Assembly (NCBI GenBank): GCA_964465735.1
Contig: CAYXKT010000001.1
Span: 10,721-74,720 of the forward strand
Direction: 5' to 3'
DNA length: 64,000 nucleotides
Origin: an uncultured bacterium
Lineage (GTDB): Bacteria > Auribacterota > Erginobacteria > Erginobacterales > Erginobacteraceae
Positions 6,243 to 64,000 of this stretch are shown piece by piece. The stretch's first letter is position 1. Every line of letters starts with the position of its first letter. Both the position numbers and the translations under genes were made by a program. Under the pieces are notes generated by a model. It saw nothing but the letters and a program-made list of their open reading frames with translations. It ran no database searches and was not told where the DNA came from.

Positions 6243-6273
6243 ATCATTTTGCATAGGATATTTTTATCACCAG

Positions 6274-14294: not shown

Positions 14295-14844
14295 GTGCTA
14301 AGCTGGAAGGGGCAGGAATCCCGAACTAAGCAGAAGAAGACGGGGTTTCGGGGTGGAAGCCTGATAAGGAGTCACCTGAATTTTTCGTTTTATGAGAAGC
14401 CGATGATGTTGTTCGGTTTTGTCGGGATGGCTCTTCTGGTACTCGGGCTGATTTTCGGTTTTCATATTATGCTTTTGCGATTCAAAGGTACCCTTACGCC
14501 GAATCGTCCGCTGGTTACTTTAACCTAAGTTGAGCGATTATTGCGGATGAAACGTGCTAAGATTTTGCTGGCCGACGGGTTGCGAAAACCGCAGCCATAT
14601 CCAGGAGATATGGCGAGGATTTTCAATATCCGTTCGGACTCAAAAGATTGGTGCAGTTCGCCGCATAGAATCGCTCAATTTAGGTATAATCTTTATCCTT
14701 GCGGGTATACAGATACTGACTCTGGGGTTTATTGCTAATTATATCGGCTCTCTCCGCAAGGAGATGTTCAAAATCCAGAAACAGAACCAGAACCTCGAAG
14801 GCAAGTTGAGCAGTTCACTGGCGAAGATTAGTCCTTCGCGATAA
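14295..14844 (+). pseudogene. 3' fragment of the 4562..5566 GT2 gene, interrupted by a MITE
   Basis: SLIRSHLNFSFYEKPMMLFG...NRPLVTLT | MITE | IIFILAGIQILTLGFIANYIGSLRKEMFKIQKQN. Confidence 0.65.
14523..14685. mobile_element. MITE family A, copy 2 (inverted orientation), inserted inside the GT2 gene fragment; TSD TTTAA/TATAA
   Basis: Same 163-bp element. The flanks continue the GT2 reading frame on either side. Confidence 0.85.
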
Positions 14845-16076: not shown

Positions 16077-16093
16077 ACCTGGTTCTTGGATCT

Positions 16094-17131
16094 ATGAAAA
16101 TCTTGGTGGAAATTGCGCAACAGACCTGTGTCCAGTTTTTTAAGAATATTATCTCGACCTTGAAGAGTCGCGGGCACGAAGTTCAGGTTCTGAGCCGCGA
16201 GCGCGAATGCACCGTGGAATTGCTCAATGAGTATGGCATCGATCATTCTGTCATCAGCAAGTTCACCCCGGGTAAGTATAATTTGTTAACGGAGCTATTG
16301 GTCAGGGATTACAAAATTTGGAAGGCGGGTCGTTCTTTTCAGCCCGACTTGGTTTTAACCGCCAGCATTGCTGGTGTTCACGCGGCTAAGCTATTGCGAG
16401 TTCCCTCCCTATTGCAGAATGACAATGGAAGATCGGCTGGCTTGCTCCACCGGTTGATGGTCCCGCTTGCCACATATGTTTTGACCCCAGATTGCCAGAA
16501 CGAGGATTACGGTTCCGGCCATATTAAATATCCCGGATACAAGGAACTGGCTTATCTCCATCCCGCTAATTTCACCCCGGATTCATCCGTCCTCCAGGAA
16601 CTCGGAATTAAAGCCGGGGAAAGATTATTTATCCTTCGGTTTACCAGTCTTCAGGCTTGTCACGATGCTGGGCGGAAAGGGATGAGTTATGAGCTAAAAA
16701 ACCGGATGATTGAATTATTGCATACCCGGGGCAGGGTATTTATTTCATCCGAAGGAGTTTTGCCGGCGGAATGGGAGAAATTTCGCCTTACATTAAGCCC
16801 CGGGAAAATCCATAGCGCACTTTACTATGCCGATCTCTATGCTGGTGATAGCGGGACAATGGCTTCCGAATCATCGGTCCTGGGAACCCCAGGGATATTT
16901 ATGCTCTCTTTTTCAGGGACGTTGTATTATCTCAAGGAACTGGAAGAAAGGTACGGGTTGCTGTATCAATTTCGACATAATCAGGAAGAAGAATGTATGG
17001 CGCTTGTCCGAAACCTGTTGGATATGAAGAACTTGAAAGCGGCGTGGGCTGAAAAGCGGCAAATAATGCTGGGAGACAAGGTCGATGTCGCGGATTATTT
17101 TGTGAAGAAAATTGAAACGGTTTCGATATGA
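16094..17131 (+). CDS. DUF354-family GT-B-like protein
   Basis: 345 aa. MKILVEIAQ, SRGHEV, YYADLYAGDSGTMASESSVLGTPGI. Confidence 0.55.
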   Translation: MKILVEIAQQTCVQFFKNIISTLKSRGHEVQVLSRERECTVELLNEYGIDHSVISKFTPGKYNLLTELLVRDYKIWKAGRSFQPDLVLTASIAGVHAAKLLRVPSLLQNDNGRSAGLLHRLMVPLATYVLTPDCQNEDYGSGHIKYPGYKELAYLHPANFTPDSSVLQELGIKAGERLFILRFTSLQACHDAGRKGMSYELKNRMIELLHTRGRVFISSEGVLPAEWEKFRLTLSPGKIHSALYYADLYAGDSGTMASESSVLGTPGIFMLSFSGTLYYLKELEERYGLLYQFRHNQEEECMALVRNLLDMKNLKAAWAEKRQIMLGDKVDVADYFVKKIETVSI

Positions 17132-40329: not shown

Positions 40330-40830
40330 CCGAATTTTACCGTGACTCTCCCGAGTCTGGAAAGTCCCGAAGTTCCGGAGGCGGACCAGGTGGTCTCGCT
40401 TTACCTGGTCCCGGATCGTGATGCCGCCGATGACCAGGAATTCGATTCGGGAGGACGGACCGCCGGCCCCGGAACTGGCCGATTATTACGCCCGGAGAGC
40501 GGATAACGGGATTGGTTTGATCATCGTCGAGTCAGCTGCGATTGGGGAAAAGTCGGCCGCCAGCTACGTCGGCGGGCTCCAAGTGCATTCCCCGAAACAC
40601 GCTGGGGCCTGGCGTCCGATTACCTGTGGCGAGATCAAGTCCCGGGAGCGGGCGGAATTTCTTCTCAATTCAGGTCATACCGACCAGGTCGCTTTCGACC
40701 GACCCCTGATCGCCAACCCTGGGTGGACGCAGATGCTGGAGACCGGATATATCAGCGAATACGTGGAGTTCGACTACGCTGTTCACTCCGCGGAATTGAT
40801 ACGAAATGATTCGACTGGATTTTTTTAACT
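40330..40830 (+). pseudogene. Old-yellow-enzyme (NADH:flavin oxidoreductase) gene remnant
   Basis: LADYYARRADNGIGLIIVESAAI plus DQVAFDRPLIANPGW are fused. An N-terminal piece is out of frame upstream. Confidence 0.5.
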
Positions 40831-41912: not shown

Positions 41913-43424
41913 ATGTCCTTTAAGAGTGGGAAATCATTTCTGATTTGGATCCTTCCGATCGTCTTCTTTCTATTTTTAGCCTTCGATGGGATTACTCACT
42001 GGGATGAGACTAACTATCTGTATAAGGGCGCCTTCTCGGAATTTGATCTTGATGCTCATTGGGTTCATTATTCGGGCGGGTTTTATAGCGGGAGGATGGC
42101 CCATATACTGATTCTCCGGTCCTTGTTTTTTGTTTTTGGGGTTGGGATGATCCCTTTTTTCTTTGTCCAGGTGACAATGGCATTATTTATCCTTGGTGCC
42201 GGCTGGATATTTTCCCGAGTGCTCAAGGAAATGGGCCTGCCGCCACCTCTCCCATATTTGGGCGTGGTGGCCTTTCTTTTTCTCCCCCTGTCTCTCTATT
42301 TGGGTTACAAAGCGCTGGCGGAAACCACCGCCATTTTAATGGCCGCGCTTTCGCTGTATTTTTATTTTTCCGGCTTGAGAACCAAGGGAGCTTCCGGTTT
42401 TATCCTTCTGGGTATTTCCGGTTTTGCTCTTTTTCTGGCTACTAACGCCCGCGTGGAATACCTGCTTACTTTCGCCACTCTAGTTCTGCCATATATCTGT
42501 TTTCGTTCCGGTTCTCGTCTCTCCGCGTTCCGGGGCTTGATCTGGGTTGGAGCAGTCTGGGTGGTTTTAACCGCGGTTCTGGGATTATGCACCGGGATCT
42601 GGAGTCTGCAATTTATGCTTCAGCGGTCGGAAGCTTATGGGGCCAAGTTTGCTGCTGACAGCGCGGATTATATGCCAAATTATATCGTAGGGATATTATT
42701 TGGCGGCGGTCTCTGGTTCTTCGCCCTGCTTTCCCTGGCCAGATGGCGTCGGGCCGCAGTCAAAATCGCTTGGGGTGGTATGGTCATTTCGATGGTGCCG
42801 ATCGCGCTTCTGGCCGACCATACGGAACTAAGGTATTACAGCCCGGCGATCTTTTCCTTTGCTTTGACGGTGGCGATCGGCATCGTGGTATTTTACGGTT
42901 GGCTGCAGCGGAAACTAAATCCCTTAAGGGCTCGAGTGGTGACGGTGGTTTTGTTTGGTCTCCTGGTGACGGGCAATCAATTGTTTCGGCCCTGGCAGGA
43001 AGTCGGTACGGACGGGTCTTCTCTGGCCCGATTGATTACCCGGGTGCGGGAGAAATACCCCGATCCACTGCTGCTGACCGCCCACCCGCATTCGACTTAT
43101 GCCTTTTCGCGGATCTGCTACCCAGAATTGAGGATAGCGCTCGATCGGGACTTCGAGGGGCTGGCTCCTCTGAAGGTTAGGAGTTTCGAGGAACTACAAG
43201 GGCAGGAAGAACCGTGGCTTTATCTTTCTTCCCGGGGCCAGAAGGCTCGGCCGTTGCTGATCAGGATACTCCATAGTCTCCGGGGAAAGACTCCGATTGA
43301 CCGCGATGATCAGCCGGTGATTGCTACTGGTTGGGTAGCTGGTCTGGATTTGCTTTCTCCAAATTGGATCGATCGCGAAGGCCAATACCTCATTTTTCGG
43401 ATGAACCAGGGAGGAAATGAGTGA
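41913..43424 (+). CDS. Polytopic membrane protein, GT-C-like (putative glycosyltransferase/mannosyltransferase family)
   Basis: 503 aa with ≥11 TM helices. The N-terminus is shared with the fragment at 7034. Confidence 0.45.
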   Translation: MSFKSGKSFLIWILPIVFFLFLAFDGITHWDETNYLYKGAFSEFDLDAHWVHYSGGFYSGRMAHILILRSLFFVFGVGMIPFFFVQVTMALFILGAGWIFSRVLKEMGLPPPLPYLGVVAFLFLPLSLYLGYKALAETTAILMAALSLYFYFSGLRTKGASGFILLGISGFALFLATNARVEYLLTFATLVLPYICFRSGSRLSAFRGLIWVGAVWVVLTAVLGLCTGIWSLQFMLQRSEAYGAKFAADSADYMPNYIVGILFGGGLWFFALLSLARWRRAAVKIAWGGMVISMVPIALLADHTELRYYSPAIFSFALTVAIGIVVFYGWLQRKLNPLRARVVTVVLFGLLVTGNQLFRPWQEVGTDGSSLARLITRVREKYPDPLLLTAHPHSTYAFSRICYPELRIALDRDFEGLAPLKVRSFEELQGQEEPWLYLSSRGQKARPLLIRILHSLRGKTPIDRDDQPVIATGWVAGLDLLSPNWIDREGQYLIFRMNQGGNE

Positions 43425-43489: not shown

Positions 43490-43680
43490 CCATCTCTTTC
43501 CGCGACTGGTGTTGAAGAACCGGATCGTGTTGCCGCCGATGCCCCGGCATTTGACTCGAGGGGGTGGGTTGCCGACCCCGGAACTGGCGGATTGCTACGT
43601 CCGGAGGGCAAAGAACGGGGACGGTTTGATCATCGCCGAGTCTGTCCGTGCCGTTATCGATGGGGTCTGATGGAAGACCA
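43490..43680 (+). pseudogene. Second OYE-family N-terminal fragment
   Basis: VLKNRIVLPPM...ELADCYVRRAKNGDGLIIAES. ~75% nt identity to 40400..40560. Confidence 0.45.
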
Positions 43681-45635: not shown

Positions 45636-46050
45636 TCAGAGTTGGGCGACCGCCCAGTCGTGAAATCGCCGGACTTGGTTCAGCAGGGCCAGGGCTTCCC
45701 CTTTGGAGAAATCGCGGTCTTCATATTCGACCAGATTCTTCTTCGCGATTACCCTTTTTCCCAACTGTACTTTCTGTCCGATTTCTTTCAAGTTGGAGGC
45801 TTCCAGGGAGTTCAGCAATTCAACTGCCGCCATCTGGCTGATGCTTATGGAACGAATCCCGGAGTACTTAACCAGTAGGGCGTCGATAAGAAAAATGACG
45901 CAATGGACTCCGTTGAGTCCGATCGCGTTCCAGTTTTCCGCTTCCTCCGCCTGGAACATCATTTGGCAGAACTCCTTTCCCTTCTTCAGATAATCCGGAT
46001 ATTGGGTCTTATCAATTGTTCGGATCTGTCTTGTTCCGGCTGGATTGATA
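45636..46050 (-). CDS. HEPN-domain protein (partner of the upstream minimal nucleotidyltransferase); 5' end disturbed by a MITE
   Basis: Helical ~120-aa domain with an Rx4-6(H/Q) region (SISQMAAVELL). The ORF N-terminus is encoded by MITE sequence, so the true start is probably M at MMFQAEE. Confidence 0.45.
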
Positions 46051-46052
46051 CC

Positions 46053-46215
46053 ACCTAAATTGAGCGATTCTATGCGGCGAACTGCACCAATCTTTTGCGT
46101 CCGAACGGATATTGAAAATCCTCGCCATATCTCCTGGATATGGCTGCGGTTTTCGCAACCCGTCGGCCAGCAAAATCTTAGCACATTTCATCCGCAATAA
46201 TCGCTCAACTTAGGT
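46053..46215. mobile_element. MITE family A, copy 3, between the MNT and HEPN genes; TSD TACCA
   Basis: Same 163-bp element with a perfect 5-bp direct-repeat flank. Confidence 0.85.
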
Positions 46216-46236
46216 ACCAATATTCTCTCGAGGGTT

Positions 46237-46879: not shown

Positions 46880-47283
46880 TCATCCTGTAAGTCAACAGGA
46901 ACCAGTGATTTAGGGGGGAGACGAGAGGGTTTCCCGGATGGCGAGGCGGATGGCCTGGTCGGAGGTGTGGTGAGGTTGCCGGCCGAGGGACTTGATCCGG
47001 GTCAGGTTGTAACGGTAGCGGGGGACGTCTCCCTTCCAGCCGCCGGTTCCGCCGGTGAAGTGGAAGGGGATGCCCTCCAACCCCATCTCCTCGACTGCGA
47101 TTTCGGCGATCCGGCGGACAGTGGTCCGGGTCTCGGGGCCGATTCCAGGTGCTCCAGTTCTCTCAGGCTGAGGTCATCAACGGCGGTGATCCGAACCCCT
47201 TCGGCCAGGAGCCGGTCGCAGAGGCGGGAGCCGATAAACCCGGTGCCCCCGGTGACCAGGATGTGCGGTTCCTTATTCATACC
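46880..47283 (-). pseudogene. NAD-dependent epimerase/dehydratase remnant with a large internal deletion
   Basis: N-terminal [32 protein letters not shown] and the C-terminal [29 protein letters not shown] in another frame. The middle ~200 aa are absent. Confidence 0.5.
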
Positions 47284-47940
47284 CGGGCGCTGGATAACAA
47301 AATTTCCCGGGGAGACCAATCGGATTTTGCGGGCCGGGGTTTGTATGGCGAGGGGATGGGTAGAGGAGGGATGAGGGCAGGATATCGGAGTTCTACCCAC
47401 TTGAGGCAATCAATTTGTCCGATGCTTCTGGATGATATTCGAGAATCAGCCCGATAGGCTCTTCCGGGTCCGTCGCATTACTTCGTCCGCCGGCAGGCAT
47501 TTGATCTTCCCCGCTTCGATTTCGTGCCATCTCCGGTCCGCTGGTTCCATCCAGGCTTTCTCGGTTCGGCGTTTTCAAAATGCTTCATACTGTCCCAGAC
47601 GCGTTGCGCGAGTATCACCCGTTCGTCAACGGCCAGACTGAGAGCTTCGTTTCTCAGTTCGTCCAGGGTGCTCATCAGCTGATTATTCCTCCAAGTTTAT
47701 CTTCCGCCGGATAAACTCTCGGTCAAGAATTGCCCAGATTAGTTCAGCCCGCTCAGACAATACCGCAATGGAAAAGTCATAAACAGAAAAGACAGAAACA
47801 GCATTGGGATCCGGATAGATTGTGTGGTTTTGCCTTGTGCTGGGGGAGATTGTTGTGCTTAACTCAAACATAATAAGATAATTCGATCTGCAATAAGAGG
47901 CAGCCGCGCATTGTCCATCCGCCACTAAAAGGACCTTATA

Positions 47941-50834: not shown

Positions 50835-51893
50835 ATGAAGATATGTTCTATCGTGGGGGCGAGGCCGCAGTTTGTTAAGGCGGCGGTGGTCAGTCGGGCT
50901 TTGCGGAAAGTCGCCCGGGAAGTGCTGATTCATACCGGGCAGCATTACGACGACGCGATGTCGGCCCGGTTCTTTCGGGAGCTGGAGATCCCTCAGCCGG
51001 ATTACGATCTGGAGGTAGGTTCCCACTCCCACGGGGTCCAGACCGGGTTGATGCTGGAGCGGATCGAGGAGGTACTGGAGAAGGAGACTCCGGAAATGGT
51101 CCTGGTTTACGGGGACACCAACTCCACTCTGGCCGGAGCGATGGCGGCGGCCAAACTTCAGATTTCGGTCGGCCACGTCGAGGCGGGGTTGCGGAGTTTT
51201 AACCGGCGGATGCCGGAAGAGATCAACCGGGTCCTGACCGACCACATCTCCACTCTGCTCTTCTGTCCCACCGATACGGCGGTGGTCAACCTCCGGAAGG
51301 AAGGGATCACGGAGGGAGTTTTTATGACCGGGGACGTGATGTACGACGCCCTGAAGTTTTACCTGGAGAAGGTCGCGGTCGACGAAGTGCTGGAGAACCG
51401 CGGCCTGAAGAGAGGCGGCTACCTTTTGCTTACGGTCCACCGGGCGGAGTCCACCGATGCCCCGGCCCGGCTGACCGCGATCGCCCAGGCTCTCTCCGCT
51501 ATCAAGGAGAAGATCTTCTTCCCCGCCCACCCCCGTACGCTCAAGGCGCTGGAAAGAAACGGAATCTCCCTGGGGGAGAATGTGATTAAGGCCGACCCGG
51601 TCGGCTACCTGGAGATGCTGTCCCTGGAGAGCCGGGCGAGGATGATCCTGACCGACTCCGGCGGGGTGCAGAAAGAGGCCTATCTGCTTGGAGTCCCCTG
51701 CGTCACCCTCCGCGATGAGACCGAGTGGGTGGAGACGGTGGAGGTAGGTTGGAATATCCTCACCGGCGCGGATCGGGAGAAGATCGTCGAAACCGTCCGG
51801 ACCTTCCGGCCGCCGCCCGCCCGCCCCGACCTCTTTGGCGACGGGGCGGCAGCGTTTAAGATCGCCGGCCTGATCACCAGTAGTACCAGATAG
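50835..51893 (+). CDS. wecB: UDP-N-acetylglucosamine 2-epimerase (non-hydrolysing)
   Basis: MKICSIVGARPQFVKAAVV, HTGQHYD, and the canonical ~352-aa length. Confidence 0.85.
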   Translation: MKICSIVGARPQFVKAAVVSRALRKVAREVLIHTGQHYDDAMSARFFRELEIPQPDYDLEVGSHSHGVQTGLMLERIEEVLEKETPEMVLVYGDTNSTLAGAMAAAKLQISVGHVEAGLRSFNRRMPEEINRVLTDHISTLLFCPTDTAVVNLRKEGITEGVFMTGDVMYDALKFYLEKVAVDEVLENRGLKRGGYLLLTVHRAESTDAPARLTAIAQALSAIKEKIFFPAHPRTLKALERNGISLGENVIKADPVGYLEMLSLESRARMILTDSGGVQKEAYLLGVPCVTLRDETEWVETVEVGWNILTGADREKIVETVRTFRPPPARPDLFGDGAAAFKIAGLITSSTR

Positions 51894-52326
51894 GCCTTGT
51901 TGTTGGAGCAGTTTCCGGATCTGCCAACGGAGCAAAGTCTGGCAGGAAGCAAAAGCAGTGCCAGATATGGTCTGAAAAATTACCTGGCTGCCGCCATTAT
52001 TTTCTGTCGAAATATATTCCTCGGCAGCATTCCGGGCCAAGTCGGTGATAGAGCACCACTGTATGGTATGTCCAATAATCGTGGACATAGCTGACATTAA
52101 TGGCGGTAAAACCGCGAAGATCCGGTAAAAATTGGTCGAGAGGTTTTTGGTTATTCGACTATCCTGGATATTCTTCCGGGGTATAAAAACCCCGGGATAG
52201 GCCGGCCAGGCTACTCTTGACCGGCGATATTGTTTGAATGGAAAAGGGCTGGTCTAATTTAACCCGGATAATCCCGCAGGTTGTTGTGATAAACTGATTT
52301 ATTTCATCAGGTACTCAGTTGAAGCA

Positions 52327-52600
52327 ATGTTTCTCAGCTTGAAATCCAGGTCCTCGCGGTTGTGGCTGGGGATATTTATCGCCGCGTTTATTCTTCGGCT
52401 GGGGTATGGCCTTTCGCAGCCGGCGGAGTTCTGGGATGAGGATGAGGGGGTTTACCTGACGATGGCGGAAAACTTCCGGGCGGGGGAGGGGCTGATCTAT
52501 ACCCCTTACCGGAAGGCGGCCTTCCCCCCGCTTTATCCTTTGTTTTTGGCGGGGTTCTTGTGGGCGGGGTTTCCGCTCTTTACGGCCGCCCGGGTGGGCC
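52327..52600 (+). pseudogene. Duplicated 5' fragment (~90 codons) of the GT39-like gene at 53372
   Basis: >90% nt identity to 53430..53650 (RLGYGL.QPAEFWDEDEGVY.TMAENFRAGEGLIYTPYRKAAFPPLYPLFLAGFLWAGFPLFT), then it diverges. Confidence 0.65.
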
Positions 52601-52637
52601 GGGGGAGCGGGTCTCCGCTGGCGGGAAATTCTTTTTT

Positions 52638-52871
52638 CTATAGCGCCTTTGCTTCGGCCAGTTCGAGTACTCTGCCCTGAACCGAATCGAGGACGACGTC
52701 CCGCAGGAAACGGCGCGCGTTGAGAATTTCTATTCCGATCAACTCACCTCTGGAATTCAGTTCCGCGGTAATATCGAGATTGACCTCGACACTGCCGGCC
52801 TCGGGTTCATCGGAAATCGTAAAATGCAGCACATCGTCTTTCTCAAAATAGGTCATACGGCCTTTATTCAT
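52638..52871 (-). CDS. DUF2283-family small protein (antitoxin-like partner of DUF4258)
   Basis: YFEKDDVLHFTISDEP...GELIGIEILNA pattern. Confidence 0.5.
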   Translation of the reverse strand: MNKGRMTYFEKDDVLHFTISDEPEAGSVEVNLDITAELNSRGELIGIEILNARRFLRDVVLDSVQGRVLELAEAKAL

Positions 52872-53142
52872 TTTTGAACCTCCCAGATCTTACTCGGGTA
52901 TTGATCTGCTGACGACTTGTGATGTGCACAGTAACGGGGGTCAGAGTATCGCCGATACGTTCATAAAGTGCCAGGATCAGCCCATCTCCGTGCCGGCCGA
53001 TTGCCACCACTCGACCGGTGCCGGTATCCACATATCGTTCAGCGGAGTATCGGACAATGTTTTCTACCGTCGCCAGGTCAAAACCCCGCAGGTGGAGGCG
53101 ATAGCGCATATAGTCGCTCCAGATAATCCTGGCTCCTTCCAT
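52864..53142 (-). CDS. DUF4258-family protein (toxin-like)
   Basis: MEGARIIWSDYMRYRLHLRGFDLATVENIV...LTPVTVHITS. 8-nt overlap with the DUF2283 gene. Confidence 0.45.
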   Translation of the reverse strand: MEGARIIWSDYMRYRLHLRGFDLATVENIVRYSAERYVDTGTGRVVAIGRHGDGLILALYERIGDTLTPVTVHITSRQQINTRVRSGRFKNE

Positions 53143-53371
53143 TAGATCTCCTTTGCGAGGCGCATCATCAGCGCCACCGATATATCCGGCGCGATGACCT
53201 TGTTTCCCCATTCATTAATTAAAACATACCTCTTGAACTTCAGCAACGCTTTCCTGCTTTGTTCTTGCTGCTTTTGTGGGATTTGTTGACCGACGTAACA
53301 ACAAGAGAGAATTATGGACATAATCGACAATAAAGGCATTCTATAGCCAGAACTTTTCAAATTATTGCCTT

Positions 53372-54610
53372 GTGCAATCAATCGAGATGCCTCTAAACTT
53401 AGGATACAAGTCTTCCCGCCTCTGGGTCGGGATCTTTCTGTCAGCATTTCTTCTTCGGCTGGGGTATGGCCTTTTGCAGCCGGCGGAGTTCTGGGATGAG
53501 GATGAGGGGGTTTACCAGACGATGGCGGAAAACTTCCGGGCGGGGGAGGGGCTGATCTATACCCCTTACCGGAAGGCGGCCTTCCCCCCGCTTTATCCTT
53601 TGTTTTTGGCGGGGTTCTTGTGGGCGGGGTTTCCGCTCTTTACGACCGCCCGGGTTTTCCAGGCTCTTCTGGGGGCTTTCTCCTGTCTCCTGATCGGGGG
53701 GGGGTCCCGGCGGGCTTTTGCCGGGCTGGGGGAACGGGTGAGCAGGGGGGCCGGATTTCTGGCCGCCGCCCTTCTGGCGGTTTATCCGATCGCTGTTATC
53801 TATCCGGCTCGGCTGATGACGGAGAATCTGCTGATCTTTCTTCTCCCGGCGGCGGTCTTCTCTTTGTTGAAGAGCGTTTCTTCTCCCCGGGCTCTCCTTT
53901 GGATTCTGCTTGGGGGGGTGTTGCTCGGGTTGGGGACGCTTGCTCGGCCGACTCTGCTTCCTTTCGTGGTGATGGCGGTTATCTGGCTGTGTTTTGTCCC
54001 AGCCGGTCGGCGGGGTTTTTTCGTCCGGGCCGGGGTTCTGCTGGCCGGGTTTATTCTGGTTATTCTCCCCTGGCAGGTCAGGAATTACCGTGTATTGGGA
54101 GCGGTGGTTCCAGTCACCACTGCCGCCGGGGCCAATCTCTATATCGCCAACAACCCGGCCGCCATTGGGGGCTCGATGGGCTACCGCTACCTGATGCGGG
54201 AGGGGGTCTTTCATCTCGGGGAAGAGGAGGACGAACTCGCCTATAACCGGCATTACCGGGACCGGGCATTTCAGTTCATCCGGGATAACCCGGGACGGTT
54301 TTTTTCTCTATCCCTGCGGCGGTTGATCTGGTTCTACCACCTCGACTACCATTACCGGGGGCCAATAGTGCTGGTGGTCATCTTCCATCTGATGCTCCTG
54401 CTGGCCGCGATCGGTGCCTGGACCGCCCGGCGGGCCTGGCGGATGGCCCTTCTCCCTGCCCTGGCAATCCTGAATTTTACTCTGGTCCATATGGTCTTTC
54501 TCTCCGAAGGCCGCTACCGCCTCCCCCTGATCCCCTTCCTCCTCGCCTTCTCCGCCCTTTCCCTCTCCTTCCGACTTTTCAGAGCAAGAGATAGCGCTTC
54601 TGAAAAATAA
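53372..54610 (+). CDS. GT39/PMT_2-like GT-C-fold membrane glycosyltransferase
   Basis: 412 aa, ~11 TM helices. Contains a G9 tract at 53696..53704. Confidence 0.55.
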   Translation: MQSIEMPLNLGYKSSRLWVGIFLSAFLLRLGYGLLQPAEFWDEDEGVYQTMAENFRAGEGLIYTPYRKAAFPPLYPLFLAGFLWAGFPLFTTARVFQALLGAFSCLLIGGGSRRAFAGLGERVSRGAGFLAAALLAVYPIAVIYPARLMTENLLIFLLPAAVFSLLKSVSSPRALLWILLGGVLLGLGTLARPTLLPFVVMAVIWLCFVPAGRRGFFVRAGVLLAGFILVILPWQVRNYRVLGAVVPVTTAAGANLYIANNPAAIGGSMGYRYLMREGVFHLGEEEDELAYNRHYRDRAFQFIRDNPGRFFSLSLRRLIWFYHLDYHYRGPIVLVVIFHLMLLLAAIGAWTARRAWRMALLPALAILNFTLVHMVFLSEGRYRLPLIPFLLAFSALSLSFRLFRARDSASEK

Positions 54611-54725: not shown

Positions 54726-55337
54726 TTGAGTGCAATAAAAAATATTATGAATCTGCCGGATCGGGAAATAATCGATCAGGCTTTGCGGTTGCTTGCCGAT
54801 ATACTGGAATCAACCGGAGCTCCGGCTTTCCAGCTGGTTGTACGCGGGGGCTCTTCGCAGATCGCAATGGAGCTTGTCAGCCGAACCACGCGGGATGTGG
54901 ATGTCCTGGCCTTTCTCAGTCCGCAAGGACAAATCCAGGAGGCAAGACCTTTCCCGACGGAGATTTCCGAGGCTTCCAGGCGGGTCGCCTCTACGCTGGG
55001 TCTTGATGATAATTGGCTCAATCCCGGGCCGGCAGACCTCGTTTCATCCGGGCTCCCGGACGGGCTGGGGCAGCGCCTTATCGCGAAAAAATACGGAGAG
55101 CATCTTACAGTGCATTTTATTTCCCAGATTGATCAAATATTTTTCAAGGTTTATGCCGCGGCTGATGATGCCTCGGGCCGGCATTCCGATGACTTGCTGG
55201 CACTGGTACCATCTCCCGAAGAGATTGCCGCTGCCGCTCAATGGGCTCTGGCCCAAGATCCTTCTTTCGGGTTTCAGCAGATCTTAAAGGATATGCTGGG
55301 AAAACTTGGCTATGAAAGCGTTGCTGAAAGACTTTAG
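54726..55337 (+). CDS. Hypothetical protein, possibly a minimal nucleotidyltransferase-fold
   Basis: GGSSQIAMELVSRTTRDVDVLAF is a GS...DxD-like pattern. First of a two-gene module. Confidence 0.3.
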   Translation: MSAIKNIMNLPDREIIDQALRLLADILESTGAPAFQLVVRGGSSQIAMELVSRTTRDVDVLAFLSPQGQIQEARPFPTEISEASRRVASTLGLDDNWLNPGPADLVSSGLPDGLGQRLIAKKYGEHLTVHFISQIDQIFFKVYAAADDASGRHSDDLLALVPSPEEIAAAAQWALAQDPSFGFQQILKDMLGKLGYESVAERL

Positions 55338-56331
55338 AGACGAATATCTGGAGAAGCTGCTCGATTTGATCTGGCGCCAGTGGTGCGCCCTGGGAGTCGC
55401 GGGTACGGGGGAACCCGAAAGCCGCCGAGTCATCGATCCCGAGGCGCTCCTGGCCATCACGGCGACGATGGCCAGGTACGAGGCGAGGATTTTTGACGAG
55501 GCTCTGGATTGGCTCCAGGTCAACGGGAGGTTCATCAACATCCAGAGGCTGAAGACCATATTCCGAAAGGAGCAGTTTGCGGGGACGGCCGTTATCGCCG
55601 CCATCGCGGACCTGATGTCCATAAGTTCTTCAGCGGCGAAATGGAAACGGTTATCCGAAATCGATGCCGGATCAGAGAAGAAAGATGAACCGCTATTTTA
55701 CTTCAAAAGCGGTCATCCCCACCCGATTCTTCGCGAACCACAAGCGGTTTTTTATGCACACGGTCTGCTTCGGGATAAAGTCAGACTACGGGGTCACAGC
55801 AAACCCTTCCGGCCGTCGCCGGTTTCCAACCTTCACTTGAAGCTTCGCGCTTTCTTTGGTATCAACGCCCGTTGTGAAATAATCCTTTTTCTGCTTCTGA
55901 ACCGGAAAGGCCATCCCCGAAAGATCGCCCGGCAATGCTACTACTATCAGAAGACAGTCCAGGATACGTTGGTCGATATGCGCTGTTCGGGTCTGGTAAG
56001 GGCCACCCCGTCTGGCCGGGAAGTATGGTATCGCCTCGCTTCACCTCTTTGGAAGGACCTGATGGCGGGGGAAGGGGAGCTTCCCCGCTGGATTTGCCTC
56101 CCGTCGCTTTACAGCGCTTTCGAACGGATCTGGCTGGGACTCAGCGACCCCGGTCTGGCGGGTTCCGACAATCCCCTTTTTCTCTCGTCGCAACTGCGTG
56201 AACTGATGCAAAGTGTACGCGGAGCTCTCGAACGGTCGGGCCTGGGAGACCGGCTCTCCGACCCGGGGTTGTATGTTGGCGAGGAATACACACCGGTGTT
56301 TTTCCAGGATGTGCGTAAATTGTTTGATTAA
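55306..56331 (+). CDS. Hypothetical 341-aa protein with a possible winged-helix segment
   Basis: Overlaps the upstream gene by 32 nt. No family recognised. Confidence 0.3.
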   Translation: MAMKALLKDFRDEYLEKLLDLIWRQWCALGVAGTGEPESRRVIDPEALLAITATMARYEARIFDEALDWLQVNGRFINIQRLKTIFRKEQFAGTAVIAAIADLMSISSSAAKWKRLSEIDAGSEKKDEPLFYFKSGHPHPILREPQAVFYAHGLLRDKVRLRGHSKPFRPSPVSNLHLKLRAFFGINARCEIILFLLLNRKGHPRKIARQCYYYQKTVQDTLVDMRCSGLVRATPSGREVWYRLASPLWKDLMAGEGELPRWICLPSLYSAFERIWLGLSDPGLAGSDNPLFLSSQLRELMQSVRGALERSGLGDRLSDPGLYVGEEYTPVFFQDVRKLFD

Positions 56332-57216: not shown

Positions 57217-57243
57217 ACCTATCCAGTTCTAAAAGTTGATTTA

Positions 57244-57406
57244 ACCTAAATTGAGCGATTCTATGCGGCGAACTGCACCAATCTTTTGCGTCCGAACGGA
57301 TATTGAAAATCCTCGCCATATCTCCTGGATATGGCTGCGGTTTTCGCAACCCGTCGGCCAGCAAAATCTTAGCACATTTCATCCGCAATAATCGCTCAAC
57401 TTAGGT
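57244..57406. mobile_element. MITE family A, copy 4; TSD TTTAA
   Basis: Same 163-bp element, with a perfect 5-bp direct-repeat flank. Confidence 0.85.
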
Positions 57407-57444
57407 TTAATTGATTGCCGGGTCAAAAAACAGTCTTGATGGTG

Positions 57445-60661: not shown

Positions 60662-61783
60662 ATGAATGCTCTCAGTTATCTGAAGTATGGCCGTTTGATC
60701 TTTAATAAGCACCGGGCCTCTCCGATTTATCTGGTGTTTTTTATTACCGAGAACTGTAACGCCAACTGCAAGCACTGTCTGTTGGGGGGGATCCATCCGG
60801 GCAAGGACGAGTTGACGATTGATGAGATCGAGAAGGTCTCCCGATCGATGGATGACTTTCTTTTTCTCCTCCCTACCGGGGGTGAGCCGTTTCTGCGCAA
60901 GGACCTTCCGGAGATTGTCCGGATCTTTCATCGGAACAATAATGTCTGTAATGTCGGTATCCCCACCAACGGCGGGCTGACCGACCGGGTGGTGAAGTCG
61001 GTGAGGGATATTCTCGATACCTGCCCGAAACTTGATCTGATGGTCGATGTCTCGGTGGACGGGATTGGGGCGGATCACGACGAGATCCGCCGGACCCCCG
61101 GTCTCTTCGATAAGGCGATGACCACTTTCTCCGAGCTGAAGAAGTTGGAGAAGATCTATCCCAACTTCACCACCGCCATTGAGTCCACGGTCTCTTCCTA
61201 TAACGACGCCAAGCTGGAGGATATGTTCAAGTACTTCACCGAGAATACGGAGGCTGACACTATCTTTACCCTACTCTGCCGGGGGAAACCGATGGAGCCT
61301 TCGGCCAAATTCTTTAATATCGATAACTACGAGAAATATGCCCGGTCGATGGAGAAGGGGATCCAGGAGCGGAAGCTCTCCGGTTATGACCGCTTCCCCT
61401 TTTCTGATGTGATCAATGCCAAGCGGATTGTCCGCCACGAGATTATCGCCCAGATCATCCGGGAGAACCGGATGGTCCTCCCCTGTTTCGGGGGGATTCT
61501 GGGAGGGGCGCTCTTTGCTGACGGGGAGGTGTTGCCCTGCGAGCTTCACGATGATCTCAAGCTGGGGAATGTCAGGGATTTTAACTATGATTTCAAGAAG
61601 ATCTGGTTCAGCGAGAAGGCCGATCACGCCCGGAAAGTGATCCGGGAGACCAAGTGTTTTTGTACGTACGAGTGTTTTCTGACCTTGAATATTCTCTTCA
61701 ATCCCCGGGTCTATCCGCGGCTGCTGAAGGAGTATATGGGGATCAAGTGGGGGAAGGTGAAGCAGAAGATGGGAATGTCCTGA
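60662..61783 (+). CDS. Radical SAM enzyme with a C-terminal SPASM-like Cys cluster
   Basis: CNANCKHC (Cx3Cx2C) at residues 32-39. C-terminal PCFGG...C...C.C.YEC. Confidence 0.65.
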   Translation: MNALSYLKYGRLIFNKHRASPIYLVFFITENCNANCKHCLLGGIHPGKDELTIDEIEKVSRSMDDFLFLLPTGGEPFLRKDLPEIVRIFHRNNNVCNVGIPTNGGLTDRVVKSVRDILDTCPKLDLMVDVSVDGIGADHDEIRRTPGLFDKAMTTFSELKKLEKIYPNFTTAIESTVSSYNDAKLEDMFKYFTENTEADTIFTLLCRGKPMEPSAKFFNIDNYEKYARSMEKGIQERKLSGYDRFPFSDVINAKRIVRHEIIAQIIRENRMVLPCFGGILGGALFADGEVLPCELHDDLKLGNVRDFNYDFKKIWFSEKADHARKVIRETKCFCTYECFLTLNILFNPRVYPRLLKEYMGIKWGKVKQKMGMS

Positions 61784-61840: not shown

Positions 61841-62554
61841 ACTATGATTTTTGGAAAGAAAATATCTCTGGTGATCCCGGCCCATAATGAGGCCGAGGGG
61901 CTGGCGCACTTGCTCCAGGATACCCCGGATTATCTCGACGAGATCGTGATCGTCGATAATAACTGTACCGACGATACCGCCGCGGTCTGCCGGAGTTTTG
62001 GCTGTCGGGTGGTGGTGGAGCCGAAGCAGGGCTATGGGGCGGCCCTGAAGGCGGGTTTCCGGGCGGCGACCGGGGATCTGATTATGACGATGGACGCCGA
62101 CGGGACCTGTCTCTTTGAGGGCTATCGGCGGATGATCAAGCACCTGGTCGATCACGACCTCGATTTTATCACCGCCCGGCGGGTCCCCGACCGTTTCCGG
62201 ACCCTGGTCAGTTTAATGCGGTTTCTCGGGGATATTTTCCTGGATGTTGTCTGCTGGTGCCTCTTCGGGTTCTGGGTCTTCGATTCGCAGTCCGGGATCT
62301 GGGTCTTCCGGCGGGATATTCTCGAGCGGGTGACGCTGGAGAGCGACGACTGGGCTCTCTCCGAAGAGTTCAAGATTGAGGCCTTTACCACCCCGGAAAT
62401 CAAGGCGGCGGAACTACCCGTCCTCTATATCAATGTCCGGCTGGGCGAAAGTAAATTAAGGATGTGGAGGGACGGCTTCGCCAATCTCCACTTTATGTTG
62501 AAAAAATGGCGGAAGAAAAGAAGAACTCGGCCGGCCTCCCCTCGATCTCGGTAA
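61841..62554 (+). CDS. GT2-family glycosyltransferase (short, DPM1-like catalytic domain)
   Basis: ISLVIPAHNEAEGL, IVDNNCTDDT, MDADGT. Confidence 0.7.
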   Translation, partial: TMIFGKKISLVIPAHNEAEGLAHLLQDTPDYLDEIVIVDNNCTDDTAAVCRSFGCRVVVEPKQGYGAALKAGFRAATGDLIMTMDADGTCLFEGYRRMIKHLVDHDLDFITARRVPDRFRTLVSLMRFLGDIFLDVVCWCLFGFWVFDSQSGIWVFRRDILERVTLESDDWALSEEFKIEAFTTPEIKAAELPVLYINVRLGESKLRMWRDGFANLHFMLKKWRKKRRTRPASPRSR

Positions 62555-62673
62555 TCATCCCCGCCCTCAACCCCGGTCCGGAACTGGCGGAGTGCCTGGA
62601 GCCGCTCCGGAAAAGTTCCGACCCCCGGTTCTATCCCCGCCTGTTTGAGGAGTCCCTGGGTATCAATTGAACC
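62506..62673 (+). pseudogene. Duplicated 5' fragment (~55 codons) of the GT2 gene at 63514
   Basis: MAEEKKNSAGLPSISVIIPALNPGPELAECLEPLRKSS compares with MEAEKKNSSGLPFISVIIPAYNPGPELAECLEPLRKSS. ~90% nt identity over ~160 bp. Confidence 0.65.
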
Positions 62674-62803
62674 GAGGGGAGAAAGAAGGTTGGCTTGATC
62701 TGAAACCCGGTGCCGGTGGGCTGCTCTGCCGGCTGGATCGGCAGTCCGGAGAAAACTGAGGCTCTGGTTGACGACATCCCATATAAGAGGTATGGTTTTC
62801 CAT

Positions 62804-63028
62804 ATGAAAACAACGCTTAATATCAGCGATGTGACGATGCGGGAGATCAAGCGTGAAGCTGCCCGCCAGCGGAAGACTATTTCCGAAGTGGTCGATGCCG
62901 CGCTGCGTTCCGTTGTTGAACCAAAGCCGGAAGAGAGAGAGCTGCCGCCGCTGCCGAAGTTCAGTAGCGGCGGACTCCGGGTCAACGTAGCCAACCGCGA
63001 CGCCCTTTACAACGTGATGGAAGGGTAG
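62804..63028 (+). CDS. vapB: VapB-like antitoxin
   Basis: MKTTLNISDVTMREIKREAARQRKTISEVVDAAL. Immediately upstream of the PIN toxin. Confidence 0.6.
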   Translation: MKTTLNISDVTMREIKREAARQRKTISEVVDAALRSVVEPKPEERELPPLPKFSSGGLRVNVANRDALYNVMEG

Positions 63029-63030
63029 CC

Positions 63031-63492
63031 GTGTTTGTTGTAGATACCAATATCCTGATCTATGGGGCTGTCCAGGACTCGCCCGATTACTCGTTGTGCC
63101 GGGCGCTGGTCGAATCCTGGCGGACACGGGACACGCCGTGGTATGTGACCTGGGGCGTTGTCTATGAGTTTCTCCGGGTGGTCACCCATCCTCGTGTCCT
63201 GACTCGACCCTTCTCCGCGACGCAGGCGTGGAGCTTTCTCGATGCCCTGTTTGCGTCCCCCTACCTGCGGATTCTGGTTGAAACGAATCGGCATCGGCAC
63301 GTCGCGGAAGAAGTCTTTGCTGAGGTGCCCGGCATCACGGGCAACCTGGTATTTGACGCGCACACCGCGATTTTGATGAGAGAGAACGGTATCCGGACGA
63401 TCTATACCCGCGATTCCGACTTCAATCGGTTCCCGTTCCTGGAAACAGTTGACCCAGTAACGGAGAATCGCCGAACAATGTCTCCCCAGTAA
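63031..63492 (+). CDS. vapC: VapC PIN-domain toxin
   Basis: FVVDTNILIY, with the conserved acidic residues of the PIN fold. Confidence 0.8.
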   Translation: MFVVDTNILIYGAVQDSPDYSLCRALVESWRTRDTPWYVTWGVVYEFLRVVTHPRVLTRPFSATQAWSFLDALFASPYLRILVETNRHRHVAEEVFAEVPGITGNLVFDAHTAILMRENGIRTIYTRDSDFNRFPFLETVDPVTENRRTMSPQ

Positions 63493-63513
63493 TCCCGCCC
63501 CCTAGCTGAAAAA

Positions 63514-64000
63514 ATGGAGGCAGAAAAGAAAAACTCGTCTGGACTCCCCTTCATCTCGGTAATCATCCCCGCTTACAACCCCGGTCCGGAATTGGCGGAG
63601 TGTCTGGAGCCGCTCCGGAAAAGTTCCTACCCCCGGTTTGAGGTCCTGGTGGTTGATGACGGATCCCCTGTCCCTGTGGAGGTGGAAGAACCCTTCCGGG
63701 TGGTCCGGCTGGCGGAGAACTCCGGCCCGGCCGCGGCCCGTAATGCGGGGGTGGAGGCGGCGGGGGGGGAGATCGTCCTCTTTGTCGATACCGATGTTGT
63801 GGTCGGAGGCGACTGCCTGGAGATCGTCGGGGAGTTCTACCGGGATGGGACGAGGCGGGATCGGGGGCTGACCGGGGTCCAGTCGGAGGGTATGAAGTAC
63901 TCCAACTTCGCCAGCGTTTACAAAAATCTCTGGCTCCGCTATTCCTTCCTCTGGGCGCCGCGGGAGTCGGGGCTTTTCTATACCAGTATCGCAGCGGTTC
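63514..64000 (+). CDS. GT2-family glycosyltransferase (partial; continues beyond the window)
   Basis: ISVIIPAYNPG, VLVVDDGS, FVDTD. Contains a G8 tract at 63762..63769. Confidence 0.7.
   Translation, partial: MEAEKKNSSGLPFISVIIPAYNPGPELAECLEPLRKSSYPRFEVLVVDDGSPVPVEVEEPFRVVRLAENSGPAAARNAGVEAAGGEIVLFVDTDVVVGGDCLEIVGEFYRDGTRRDRGLTGVQSEGMKYSNFASVYKNLWLRYSFLWAPRESGLFYTSIAAV

Follow-up and report, generated by a model that had tools for sequence, protein, structure and literature searches.

Putative toxin-antitoxin operons between gene-start stubs and intact glycosyltransferase genes in the glycan gene cluster of an uncultured Erginobacteraceae bacterium

Two small toxin-antitoxin (TA) operons were identified inside a sugar-polymer (glycan) gene cluster in the window, the 64,000-nt stretch of DNA analysed here. 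Each is bracketed by a gene-start stub and an intact gene. The inserts are 0.79 kb (case 1) and 0.88 kb (case 2) in size, and TA genes are the only genes that they contain. In case 1, a 272-nt stub at 52327-52598 repeats 53387-53658, the start of a GT39-like gene (BLAST: 252 nt, 92.5% identity, E=3e-102). In case 2, positions 62499-62630 repeat 63507-63638, the start of the glycosyltransferase gene GT2b (132 nt, 89.4% identity, E=4e-44). The duplicated 5' fragments reported in a preliminary description of this DNA were thus recovered in both places.

The native upstream neighbour in case 1 is a UDP-GlcNAc 2-epimerase gene (50835..51893, + strand; PF02350, E=1e-107), whose 3' end is collinear with that in the conspecific locus L062. 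The native spacer of 433 nt that follows (51894..52326) is near-identical in L062, with mismatches at 10 of 684 positions between window positions 51643-52326 and L062 positions 1-684. No homolog of this spacer is present in the homologous clusters L053 and L055. Stub 1 (52327..52598, + strand) is a pseudogene representing the displaced native 5' end (~271 nt) of the GT39-like gene. A 39-nt filler (52599..52637), unmatched in the window or related loci, separates it from the stop codon of the DUF2283 gene.

The DUF2283 gene (52638..52871, - strand; PF10049, E=1.8e-11) is the putative antitoxin gene of TA module 1. Its exact protein sequence was found on 22 contigs, with identical context in 10 of 10 places among the matches listed. 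A 92-aa partner gene (52864..53142, - strand), overlapping the DUF2283 gene by 8 nt, encodes the putative toxin. The module had been described as a DUF4258/DUF2283 pair. The DUF2283 assignment holds, but the DUF4258 assignment was not recovered, since the partner has no Pfam match at E<=1, and the 115-aa ORF version likewise has none; gene order and the 8-nt overlap are compatible with a pair. The L055 counterpart of the 92-aa gene shows a weak DUF4258 match (E=2e-4), under the curated cut-off. The partner has 185 homologs at E<=1e-5. Among the 120 matches listed, nearly all are 92 aa long and unnamed, with source names including Lentisphaerae and Deltaproteobacteria. Downstream lies a spacer apparently brought with the cassette (53143..53386), which carries promoter-like hexamers toward the GT39-like gene (53286-53324, + strand) and lacks homology to the relatives' upstream regions. 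The intact GT39-like (PMT_2) glycosyltransferase gene occupies 53387..54610 (+ strand; PF13231).

Aligned from the ATG, the two case 1 copies are identical at 243 of 271 positions (89.7%). The identity is uneven, with 64.1% over nt 1-64 and 97.6% over nt 65-271. Stub 1 is identical over nt 1-154 to the intact GT39 gene of L062. The stub agrees with L062 and differs from the intact copy at 28 sites, 23 of which fall within nt 4-64, and agrees with the intact copy and differs from L062 at 25 sites (155-273). These 25 sites require an extra event, either a recombination patch in L062 or gene conversion between the copies. The N-terminus encoded by the stub (MFLSLKSRSS) is like those of P0170 and P0008, and that of the intact gene (MPLNLGYKSS) is like those of the Erginobacter protein P0002 and of P0010. 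The first 67 nt of the intact gene share 84% identity with L055, the closest sequence, and 66% with the stub. From about nt 300 to 1140, the intact gene matches L062 at roughly 93-100% per 60-nt block. Stub 1 represents the native allele, whereas the intact gene begins with a different one; because the stub matches the intact gene of a TA-free conspecific, the start of the intact gene would have arrived with the cassette. Searches with blastn-short and tblastn detected no remnants of other cluster genes in the flanks of case 1 or of the inserts in L053, L055, and L052.

Case 2 lies downstream of a radical-SAM/SPASM gene (60662..61783, + strand; PF04055, PF13186). The glycosyltransferase gene GT2a (61844..62554, + strand; PF00535) overlaps stub 2 by 49 nt; in relatives, intact GT2b is overlapped in the same manner. 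The earlier observation that the fragment preserves this overlap is correct. Stub 2 (62499..62630, + strand) is a pseudogene that contains the GT2b 5' end from -7 to +125. It is followed by a decayed radical-SAM 3' copy (62631..62703, + strand), recognized by sequence identity to relatives' 3' ends and comprising the last ~80 nt including the stop codon. This remnant shares 77-78% identity over about 70 nt with the 3' ends of L053, L055, and L026, and 76% over 45 nt with the 3' end of the radical-SAM gene in the window. The latter represents the type from which the remnant derives; the remnant is no closer to it than to the ends of other lineages. The stub ORF tail (YPRLFEESLGI) also resembles the radical-SAM C-terminus (YPRLLKEYMGI).

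The vapBC promoter region (62763..62803, + strand) contains a promoter-like TTGACG-17-TATGGT at 62768-62796. Homology to L061 begins at 62763, which marks the left edge of the shared vapBC module. The vapB-like antitoxin gene (62804..63028, + strand; 74 aa) has a weak DUF6364 match and homologs with RHH_1, and lies directly upstream of the vapC PIN-domain toxin gene (63031..63492, + strand; 153 aa; PF01850, E=4.7e-11). Only 2 nt separate the two genes, and the location of vapB in the same operon, with its own promoter-like site, is that expected of a VapBC antitoxin gene. VapC has 1932 homologs at E<=1e-10, the best being 75-90% identical, and some source names are Planctomycetota, Brocadiia, Oscillatoria, and Pontiellaceae. 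The sources name VapC homologs 'TA system VapC family ribonuclease toxin', as expected of a PIN toxin. The two genes form a putative type II toxin-antitoxin operon, VapBC. The 14-nt vapC 3' flank (63493..63506, TCCCGCCCCCTAGC) is like the flank after an unrelated PIN120 gene of L053 and L055. The second repeat copy (63507-63638) and intact GT2b (63507..64000, + strand; PF00535), with its ATG at 63514, run past the window end; full GT2b encodes 340 aa in L001. The changes separating the two GT2b copies, read by eye, lie on both copies, as for two alleles.

The final 9 nt of stub 2 (62622-62630, CCCCCGGTT) form a junction microhomology. At this CCCCCGG(T/G)T sequence (CCCCCGGKT), position +125 of GT2b meets the radical-SAM gene at about -80, and 8 of 9 nt are shared between CCCCCGGTT in GT2b and CCCCCGGGT in the radical-SAM gene. 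The identical junction is present in L053, where the stub copy is frameshifted. Case 2 therefore has a microhomology junction adjoining a homologous segment, the arrangement produced by homology-facilitated illegitimate recombination. A radical-SAM piece joined in this way is a signature of illegitimate recombination between cluster copies or variants, not of discrete-element insertion. A VapBC pair had been reported as the insert; the pair was found, but the insert opens with the radical-SAM remnant, which rules out a clean TA insertion. The suggestion that the modules integrated just inside a gene with duplication of the target's 5' segment is likewise unsupported in that form, given the allelic nt 1-64 of case 1 and the microhomology join with the radical-SAM piece in case 2.

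The preliminary description saw no obvious common site at the duplicated segments beyond their being translation-start regions. A junction motif check revealed CCCGGKT at both stub ends (52589-52595 and 62624-62630), and CCCGGGT is found in the radical-SAM gene at 61704-61710. The motif, which was picked post hoc, occurs at 50 sites in the 64 kb versus 26 expected, and its presence at both stub ends may be taken as suggestive. A common end motif after the PIN genes (TGATCC...ATAGC; TTCTATAGC in case 1) was too short for evaluation. No recombinase or constant site was seen in or beside either insert. A site-specific element would carry an integrase or recombinase and a constant att core; the inserts hold only TA genes, and repeat lengths and positions differ between them. 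Integron-type cassettes were also considered and rejected, as attC-like inverted repeats are absent around both inserts.

The same structures were found in at least 10 independent metagenome assemblies with 98.6-100% identity. Contigs collinear with the window, derived from independent samples and assemblers, are L001-L010, L064, and L065 for case 2 and L011-L018 for case 1. The stub, TA genes, and intact-gene start are spanned together in L011, L012, and L016-L018, and L001-L006 span the entire case 2. An artefact of one assembly is ruled out by these independent assemblies.

Comparison with insertion-free relatives, proposed earlier as a check, revealed empty sites for both cases. L062 carries the epimerase gene, the spacer, and an intact GT39 gene with the stub-type start, without TA genes. 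GT2a directly overlaps GT2b in L023, L025, L026, and L060. The first three, which represent three other lineages with an empty slot, contain a single copy of the segment repeated in the window. Relative to these empty sites, each TA operon does have a truncated 5' copy on one side and the intact gene on the other, and the truncated copy is collinear with the ancestral upstream neighbour, as had been proposed. In L060, vapBC of the same type lies upstream of GT2a, which is the slot downstream of the radical-SAM gene; L060 starts inside vapB, so that the radical-SAM gene itself is out of view there. L060 is 97.7% identical to L026, which has no vapBC.

The GT2a/GT2b slot was observed in four states. 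It is empty in L023, L025, and L026, contains a PIN120 module with a roughly 45-nt duplication in L055 and L056, contains the stub and the PIN153 module in the window, and holds PIN120 and PIN153 stacked in L053. The pattern had been described as a repeated one, and this was extended by three more TA insertions with gene-end copies at their flanks in L053 and L055 and by a fourth in the unrelated genome L066, where a homologous vapBC lies between 32-nt repeats (94% identical) of the 3' end of the gene upstream. L053 and L055 include mirror-image 3' cases, in which the fragment is contiguous with the native flank and the intact gene gains an insert-specific tail. Across lineages, different TA modules occupy about eight intergenic slots of the homologous cluster. 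L023 and L026 have a gene between the GT39 and deacetylase genes that is flanked by 51-nt repeats and looked like a further case. The gene is of the Y1_Tnp (RAYT-like) type and the repeats are REP-like palindromes, so these repeats were excluded. A metagenome scan with GT2b retrieved only 4 loci, of which the best, L056, aligns to the window in the same way as L055. A donor search via the VapC homologs P0050, P0051, P0054, and P0056 yielded L060, L061, and the unrelated contexts L066 and L067, none of which is the exact donor predicted. Among the loci examined, neither the exact order radical-SAM gene, vapBC, GT2b nor a TA module directly upstream of the GT39 gene without a stub was found.

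The reading that we prefer, and to which we give an even chance of being right, is that import or rearrangement between variants of a single cluster placed the cassettes where they are, through one homologous crossover and one microhomology join. On this reading, the stubs are the displaced native 5' ends of two glycosyltransferase genes, and probably did not arise through copying of a target by an inserting element. The allelic differences appear to indicate another lineage as the source. We infer how the donor was arranged, in which order the events took place, and by which pathway recombination proceeded, as follows. A compact, recombinase-free TA operon of about 0.7 kb from promoter to stop would arrive within a segment from another cluster variant, in which it would already adjoin the orthologous gene. 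One join would be a homologous crossover within the glycosyltransferase gene. The other would be illegitimate, at a short GC-rich microhomology (scored in case 2) inside the recipient's own, now redundant 5' end, and the pathway would be of the homology-facilitated illegitimate recombination type. The product would consist of the native upstream genes, the native 5' stub, in some cases donor flank, the TA operon, and a donor-type 5' end fused to the native gene body. The direct repeats would afterwards provide portable homology, through which unequal homologous recombination between variants could add, stack, and delete cassettes. That only such outcomes are seen would be due to purifying selection, because any join placed further upstream would disrupt a tightly packed or overlapping neighbour, and the gene itself would be lost if no replacement 5' end came with the join. 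An illegitimate join inside a donor-homologous region is not the commonest reported outcome of homology-facilitated illegitimate recombination.

An intragenomic tandem duplication followed by loss of redundant copies seems rather unlikely. A microhomology-mediated event would have joined the radical-SAM 3' end to GT2b +125 in an L060-like ancestor with vapBC between the radical-SAM gene and GT2a, doubling vapBC and GT2a; deletion of the first vapBC and the second GT2a would then leave the stub, the radical-SAM remnant, vapBC, and GT2b, and case 1 would have an analogous history. The 8-of-9-nt junction is the exact join point expected from such an event, the required vapBC upstream of GT2a is seen in L060, and the copy spacing of 1008 nt is close to the native distance from the radical-SAM position to GT2b +125 (about 0.93 kb). 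However, two more clean deletions are needed, and the second GT2a copy leaves no trace. The 64% identity over nt 1-64 in case 1, against 97.6% elsewhere, is impossible for a recent duplication without later allele replacement, and the remnant resembles the radical-SAM end of the window no more closely than it does the ends from other lineages. The fragments could also be assembly chimeras or ancient independent paralogs. Case 1 contigs of short-read assemblies often end inside the repeat, but the many independent assemblies that span the structures and the single-copy state of both sites in relatives make this hardly credible.

A true 'insertion with long target duplication', in which a staggered double-strand break or replication template switching copies 45-270 nt of the target and the copies later diverge or are partly overwritten by recombination with other strains, is distinctly unlikely. 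As in the published definition (PMC2853133), an insert of <20 kb without mobility genes lies between direct repeats of >30 bp, and these repeats map to one sequence in insert-free relatives (L062 for case 1; L023, L025, and L026 for case 2). Against the relatives, both copies of GT2b have derived states in common, and the repeat around vapBC in L066 is of the same kind. By contrast, the repeats are not both near-identical copies of a resident target: the 5' segment of case 1 is allelic rather than duplicated, and the case 2 copies are 89% identical with changes spread over both rather than gathered in the pseudogene. The radical-SAM remnant joined by microhomology in the case 2 insert also argues against it. 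Campbell-type integration seems very unlikely. A small circle carrying the TA operon and one gene 5' end, released in the donor by recombination between repeats, would enter the resident gene through one homologous crossover. A truncated copy, an insert, and an intact copy are what this textbook route yields, and L019 (with a 14-nt head-tail overlap) and L020, from different projects, are closed 1060-nt cycles of the TA genes and one hybrid repeat. Yet these cycles could be repeat-caused de Bruijn graph loops, and the route accounts for spread and not for the origin of the first repeat. It predicts that both copies are donor/recipient hybrids, which with present data is indistinguishable from other models.

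The movement of chromosomal TA modules without transposases or integrases is poorly understood. The closest precedent is the mode called 'insertion with long target duplication', described for restriction-modification gene complexes (Nobusato et al., 2000, as cited in PMC2853133; Furuta, Abe & Kobayashi, 2010, PMC2853133), the mechanism of which is likewise unknown in the literature (PMC2853133). In a 2013 review the mode is described for restriction-modification systems, and TA systems are not mentioned in this connection (PMC3874152). The likeness lies in an addiction-type gene pair without transposase or integrase, in direct repeats of tens to hundreds of bp that are single-copy in an insert-free related genome and overlap gene ends, and in allelic substitution by other systems at the same locus. 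Unlike there, the cargo here is a type II TA operon, the case 1 copies are allelic over the first 64 nt, and the case 2 junction holds the remnant of another cluster gene. Owing to these last two features, the 'duplication' looks like orthologous gene-end import and not like target copying.

Other known systems share some of these features. Gene-end genomic islands at tRNA or gene 3'-end att sites also have a gene end as the direct repeat and restore the intact gene with element-derived sequence. Unlike such islands, the inserts have no integrase in or beside them, the repeats vary (45, 132, and 272 nt), and the junctions are microhomologies without a constant core. Campbell-type insertion-duplication likewise gives a truncated 5' copy, an insert, and an intact gene, and is reversible by repeat recombination; here the circular intermediate is only hinted at by the ambiguous cyclic contigs. 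Homology-facilitated illegitimate recombination is known from the uptake of foreign DNA in Acinetobacter and Streptococcus pneumoniae, where one homologous anchor is combined with a join at a short GC-rich microhomology and foreign DNA is captured beside the anchor. A homologous anchor and a GC-rich microhomology join are found here too. In the classic form, recipient DNA is usually deleted, whereas here the illegitimate join falls within the anchor gene as carried by the recipient, which leaves the stub behind.

Together, the loci point to recombination between cluster variants over element-encoded transposition. They provide dated, sequence-level snapshots of empty, filled, stacked, and decayed slot states, with a resolved microhomology junction and an allelic mosaic, and widen the 'long target duplication' signature from restriction-modification systems, for which it was described, to type II TA operons. 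A wider proposal, which we regard as unlikely, is that minimal TA operons are recombinase-free cassettes moving among glycan-cluster slots, with duplicated gene ends as portable homology and with 1-kb circles or tandem amplifications, at which the cyclic contigs L019 and L020 hint, that are released by recombination between these ends and re-enter related clusters by homologous recombination. If true, cassette movement would assemble arrays resembling those of integrons, like the PIN120 and PIN153 modules stacked in L053, and would parallel, for TA operons, the 'virus-like life cycle' that has been suggested for restriction-modification systems. Gene-start stubs beside TA operons are probably scars of recombination between cluster variants, and their annotation as small genes is to be avoided.

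Both TA modules of the window lie within one glycan-synthesis cluster with the gene order methyltransferase-like gene, epimerase, GT39-like gene, polysaccharide deacetylase, PMT, GNAT, radical-SAM, GT2a and GT2b. The nearest named relative is Candidatus Erginobacter occultus (80–82% amino-acid identity for two proteins), which has been described in the phylum Ca. Auribacterota (PMC9324843). Many assemblies made independently for this organism (Logan, ENA and JGI; L011–L018 covering case 1, L001–L010, L064 and L065 covering case 2) carry the structures collinear with the window at 98.6–100% identity, and assembly chimerism, a concern raised in the preliminary description, is therefore excluded.

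In case 1, the intact PMT_2/GT39-like gene (53387–54610) begins with the right-hand copy of a direct-repeat pair (52327–52598 and 53387–53658; BLAST alignment of 252 nt at 92.5% identity, E = 3e-102), and the left-hand copy is a truncated gene start, stub 1. The copies enclose two overlapping minus-strand genes, a DUF2283 gene (52638–52871; PF10049, E = 1.8e-11) and a 92-aa gene (52864–53142). The latter had been labeled DUF4258, an assignment left unconfirmed by a Pfam search with no match at E ≤ 1. Identity between the copies is 64.1% over nt 1–64 and 97.6% over nt 65–271. A second member of the 90%-identity cluster of the window GT39-like protein, P0170, is intact and has a stub-type N-terminus. 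Its contig, L062, is collinear with window 51643–52597, covering the epimerase 3′ end, a 433-nt spacer and the stub, with 10 mismatches over the 684 nt that precede the ATG, and then continues into an intact gene 92.9% identical to 53404–54558. Neither the TA operon nor a second repeat copy is present in L062, which is a within-species empty site for case 1.

In a three-way count, stub 1 agrees with L062 against the intact gene at 28 sites, 23 of them in nt 4–64 and the rest at 89, 131, 259, 270 and 271; stub and intact gene agree against L062 at 25 sites, all in nt 155–273. The first 67 nt of the intact gene are nearest to those of the related contig L055 (84%), and the corresponding 67 nt of stub 1 have 64–72% identity to all lineages except L062. 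The N-terminus of the intact protein (MPLNLGYKSS) resembles those of the Erginobacter protein P0002 and of P0010, and that of the stub (MFLSLKSRSS) resembles those of P0170 and P0008. Judged from these site counts, lineage identities and N-termini, stub 1 is the native gene start with its upstream DNA still native, and the start of the intact gene is a different allele that adjoins the TA operon. The 155–273 block of this allelic mosaic needs one more event, either a recombination patch in L062 or gene conversion between the window copies.

In case 2, the repeat pair (62499–62630 and 63507–63638; 132 nt at 89.4% identity, E = 4e-44) encloses vapB (62804–63028) and the PIN-domain gene vapC (63031–63492; PF01850, E = 4.7e-11). 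GT2b starts at 63514 in the right-hand copy and encodes 340 aa in L001. The left-hand copy, stub 2, still overlaps the upstream GT2a (61844–62554) by 49 nt. The preliminary description was right about both repeat pairs and about this overlap. The DNA directly 3′ of stub 2 is not TA DNA. Instead, 62631–62703 is the decayed end of a radical-SAM gene, a copy of its last ~80 nt including the stop codon; over ~70 nt it is 77–78% identical to the ends of the radical-SAM genes in L053, L055 and L026. At the junction, a 9-nt stretch is near-identical in both partners (CCCCCGGTT at 62622–62630 on the GT2b side; CCCCCGGGT on the radical-SAM side, the window's own at ~61702–61710). The order is thus radical-SAM gene, GT2a, GT2b from −7 to +125 joined to the radical-SAM remnant, ~60 nt, a promoter, vapB, vapC, 14 nt and GT2b. 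The motif CCCGGKT occurs at both stub ends and at the radical-SAM partner site (52589–52595, 62624–62630 and 61704–61710). The window contains it 50 times (26 expected from shuffles), and it could mark a hot spot of breakage or microhomology or be coincidental.

The same junction is present in L053, where the stub is also frameshifted; stub 2 is therefore an old pseudogene common to two lineages that are ~80–85% identical. By eye, differences between the GT2b copies fall on both copies and are not concentrated in the pseudogene, a distribution that would be expected for two alleles. With 1932 homologs at E ≤ 1e-10, the VapC family is large, and it is also highly conserved; the best homologs are 75–90% identical, some assigned by source name to Planctomycetota, Brocadiia, Oscillatoria and Pontiellaceae. 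A close homolog (83%) lies on contig L060 in the order vapB, vapC, GT2a, GT2b. There, vapBC precedes GT2a and occupies the slot that follows the radical-SAM gene; the contig begins inside vapB, and the radical-SAM gene itself is out of view. Beginning 2 nt ahead of the GT2a start codon, L060 and L026 share 97.7% identity, and L026 has a hairpin-rich 208-nt spacer where L060 has the TA genes. This alternative position of vapBC accounts for a radical-SAM 3′ remnant preceding vapB in the window. Three lineages (L023, L025 and L026) are empty sites for case 2: GT2a directly overlaps GT2b, and the segment doubled in the window is present once. Compared with these relatives, the left window copy continues their upstream sequence and the right copy their downstream sequence.

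In other lineages, the corresponding intergenic slots of the homologous clusters are occupied by different TA modules. The GT2a/GT2b slot, empty in the three lineages named, holds VapB and PIN120 with a ~45-nt duplication (−9 to +36) in L055/L056, a stub with PIN153 in the window, and PIN120 and stub plus PIN153 stacked in tandem in L053. A DUF4258-like and DUF2283 pair occupies the methyltransferase/epimerase slot of L055. A RelE/MqsA-like module lies downstream of the deacetylase gene in L052; in L053 the same module (80% identical) precedes that gene, behind a 64-nt stub of the deacetylase start. At the dehydratase 3′ end, a PIN144 pair follows a 270-nt 3′ fragment in L053, and an unannotated 157-aa/75-aa pair follows a 121-nt 3′ fragment in L055. 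The dehydratase/methyltransferase slot contains a ParE module in L053, a Phd-type module in L055, and decayed ParE and antitoxin remnants in the window (47396–47675). In all fragment-bearing cases, the fragment is contiguous with native flank on its far side, and in the 3′ cases the TA-side end of the intact gene is insert-specific. L066 comes from an unrelated genome of high GC content. Its vapBC homolog (VapC 78% identical) is bracketed by a 32-nt direct repeat (94% identical; 747–778 and 1643–1674) that corresponds to the 3′ end of the preceding gene, judged by eye to resemble a periplasmic-binding-protein gene.

The 3′ flanks of the unrelated PIN153 and PIN120 genes are alike, with TGATCC[CGCCCC]ATAGC followed by the GT2b start region (window 63490–63506; L055 17878–17890; L053 20402–20414; L061 ~858–875). 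These very short flanks suggest that the junctions may share ancestry, for example through cargo swapped in one slot. Another VapC homolog, on L067, adjoins an 89-aa HATPase_c fragment. Apparent extra cases in L023 and L026 were excluded as REP-like palindromes (CTTATTGCACAAA...TTTGTGCAATAAG) around a Y1_Tnp (RAYT-like) gene between the GT39-like and deacetylase genes (L023 12930–14054; L026 13227–14312); in these lineages, the C-terminal tail of the GT39-like protein seems to be encoded by the palindrome.

On the best-supported reading, neither cassette entered as a discrete target-copying element. What the sequences show directly is empty sites, allelic mosaicism, a microhomology junction, vapBC in an alternative position and a stacked state. 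In the donor arrangements, event order and pathway that we infer, a segment from another cluster variant, comprising the TA operon and the adjacent end of the orthologous gene, would have been fixed by one homologous crossover in the gene and one illegitimate microhomology join; in case 2 it would also have carried a piece of the gene on the other side of the operon. The illegitimate join would have hit the recipient's own gene end, by then redundant. Since the genes are packed or overlapping, only joins that spared the neighbor and one complete gene copy would have survived selection. Case 1 could be a simple replacement with a left join at ~+271 and, on the right, a crossover near +300, where similarity between L062 and the intact GT39-like gene resumes. 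The repeats would then supply homology for unequal recombination, which would account for empty, single and stacked states and different cargo in one slot. A more novel but less probable reading is that recombinase-free TA cassettes cycle through repeat-bounded slots.

The nearest described phenomenon is "insertion with long target duplication", known from restriction-modification gene complexes. Such inserts lack mobility genes and are flanked by direct repeats of 46 to ~420 bp that align to one copy in an empty genome; the mechanism is not known, and the repeats have been proposed to serve in a life cycle (PMC2853133). In a 2013 review covering both restriction-modification and TA systems, this mode is given for restriction-modification only (PMC3874152), and a literature search on TA systems with homology-facilitated illegitimate recombination gave only an unrelated modeling paper. 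The window loci resemble this phenomenon in all its descriptive features. However, it implies that each repeat was copied from the resident target, which is not so at these loci, and recombination between cluster variants is the better fit on this point. The anatomy and recurrence noted in the preliminary description stand, whereas its duplication of the target by an integrating element conflicts with the allelic 64 nt and the radical-SAM junction. A true insertion of this kind, later overwritten by recombination, is a rival explanation. Another is that, in an L060-like ancestor, microhomology-mediated tandem duplication affected the block between the radical-SAM 3′ end and GT2b +125, after which one copy each of vapBC and GT2a was lost. 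This fits the case 2 junction perfectly, but it needs extra clean deletions and leaves the allelic 64 nt of case 1 unexplained. A third rival is Campbell-type entry of a circle carrying the TA genes and a repeat. Relevant to it are two contigs from different projects, L019 (ENA ROVI19-1 SAMN06685538, scaffold_45853), which has a 14-nt head-tail overlap, and L020 (Logan SRR29792792). Each forms a closed cycle of 1060 nt with TA module 1 and one hybrid repeat, intact-type at its 5′ end and stub-type at its 3′ end. They could be excised circles or tandem amplification, or equally repeat-caused assembly-graph loops.

Other elements and repeats were also observed in the window. A MITE-like element of ~165 nt with 17-nt terminal inverted repeats (ACCTAAATTGAGCGATT ... 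AATCGCTCAACTTAGGT) has three copies that are 96–97% identical (6072–6246, 46045–46219 and 57236–57410) and a diverged one (14515–14689). One copy fills the convergent deacetylase/PMT slot, where L052 has the RelE/MqsA module and L053 and L055 have nothing. An Rfam match to group II intron domains D1–D4 lies at 11080–11217 on the plus strand (RF02003, 57.9 bits, E = 4e-10). A third direct repeat (40411–40533 and 43520–43642; 123 nt, 79%) is formed by two fragments from the N-terminal part of an Oxidored_FMN (old-yellow-enzyme-like) gene, flanking 3 kb with a gene for a 503-aa multi-pass membrane protein (41913–43424); the first fragment ORF (40418–40828) looks like an internally deleted gene. 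The region 46925–47675 contains decayed genes whose counterparts are all intact in L053, namely an NAD-dependent dehydratase with an internal deletion of ~580 nt and decayed remnants of both a ParE toxin and its Unstab_antitox antitoxin. A DUF6036-like nucleotidyltransferase gene (54726–55337) overlaps a 341-aa gene (55306–56331). Compared with window 54726–56331, L053 11344–12411 is ~530 nt shorter and holds a single ORF that starts with the N-terminus of the first gene and is fused there to the second, an indel polymorphism affecting a further two-gene module. Three adjacent repeat blocks (439–1602 and 15216–16383; 85–87% identity, 14.8 kb apart) point to a duplicated gene set elsewhere in the window.
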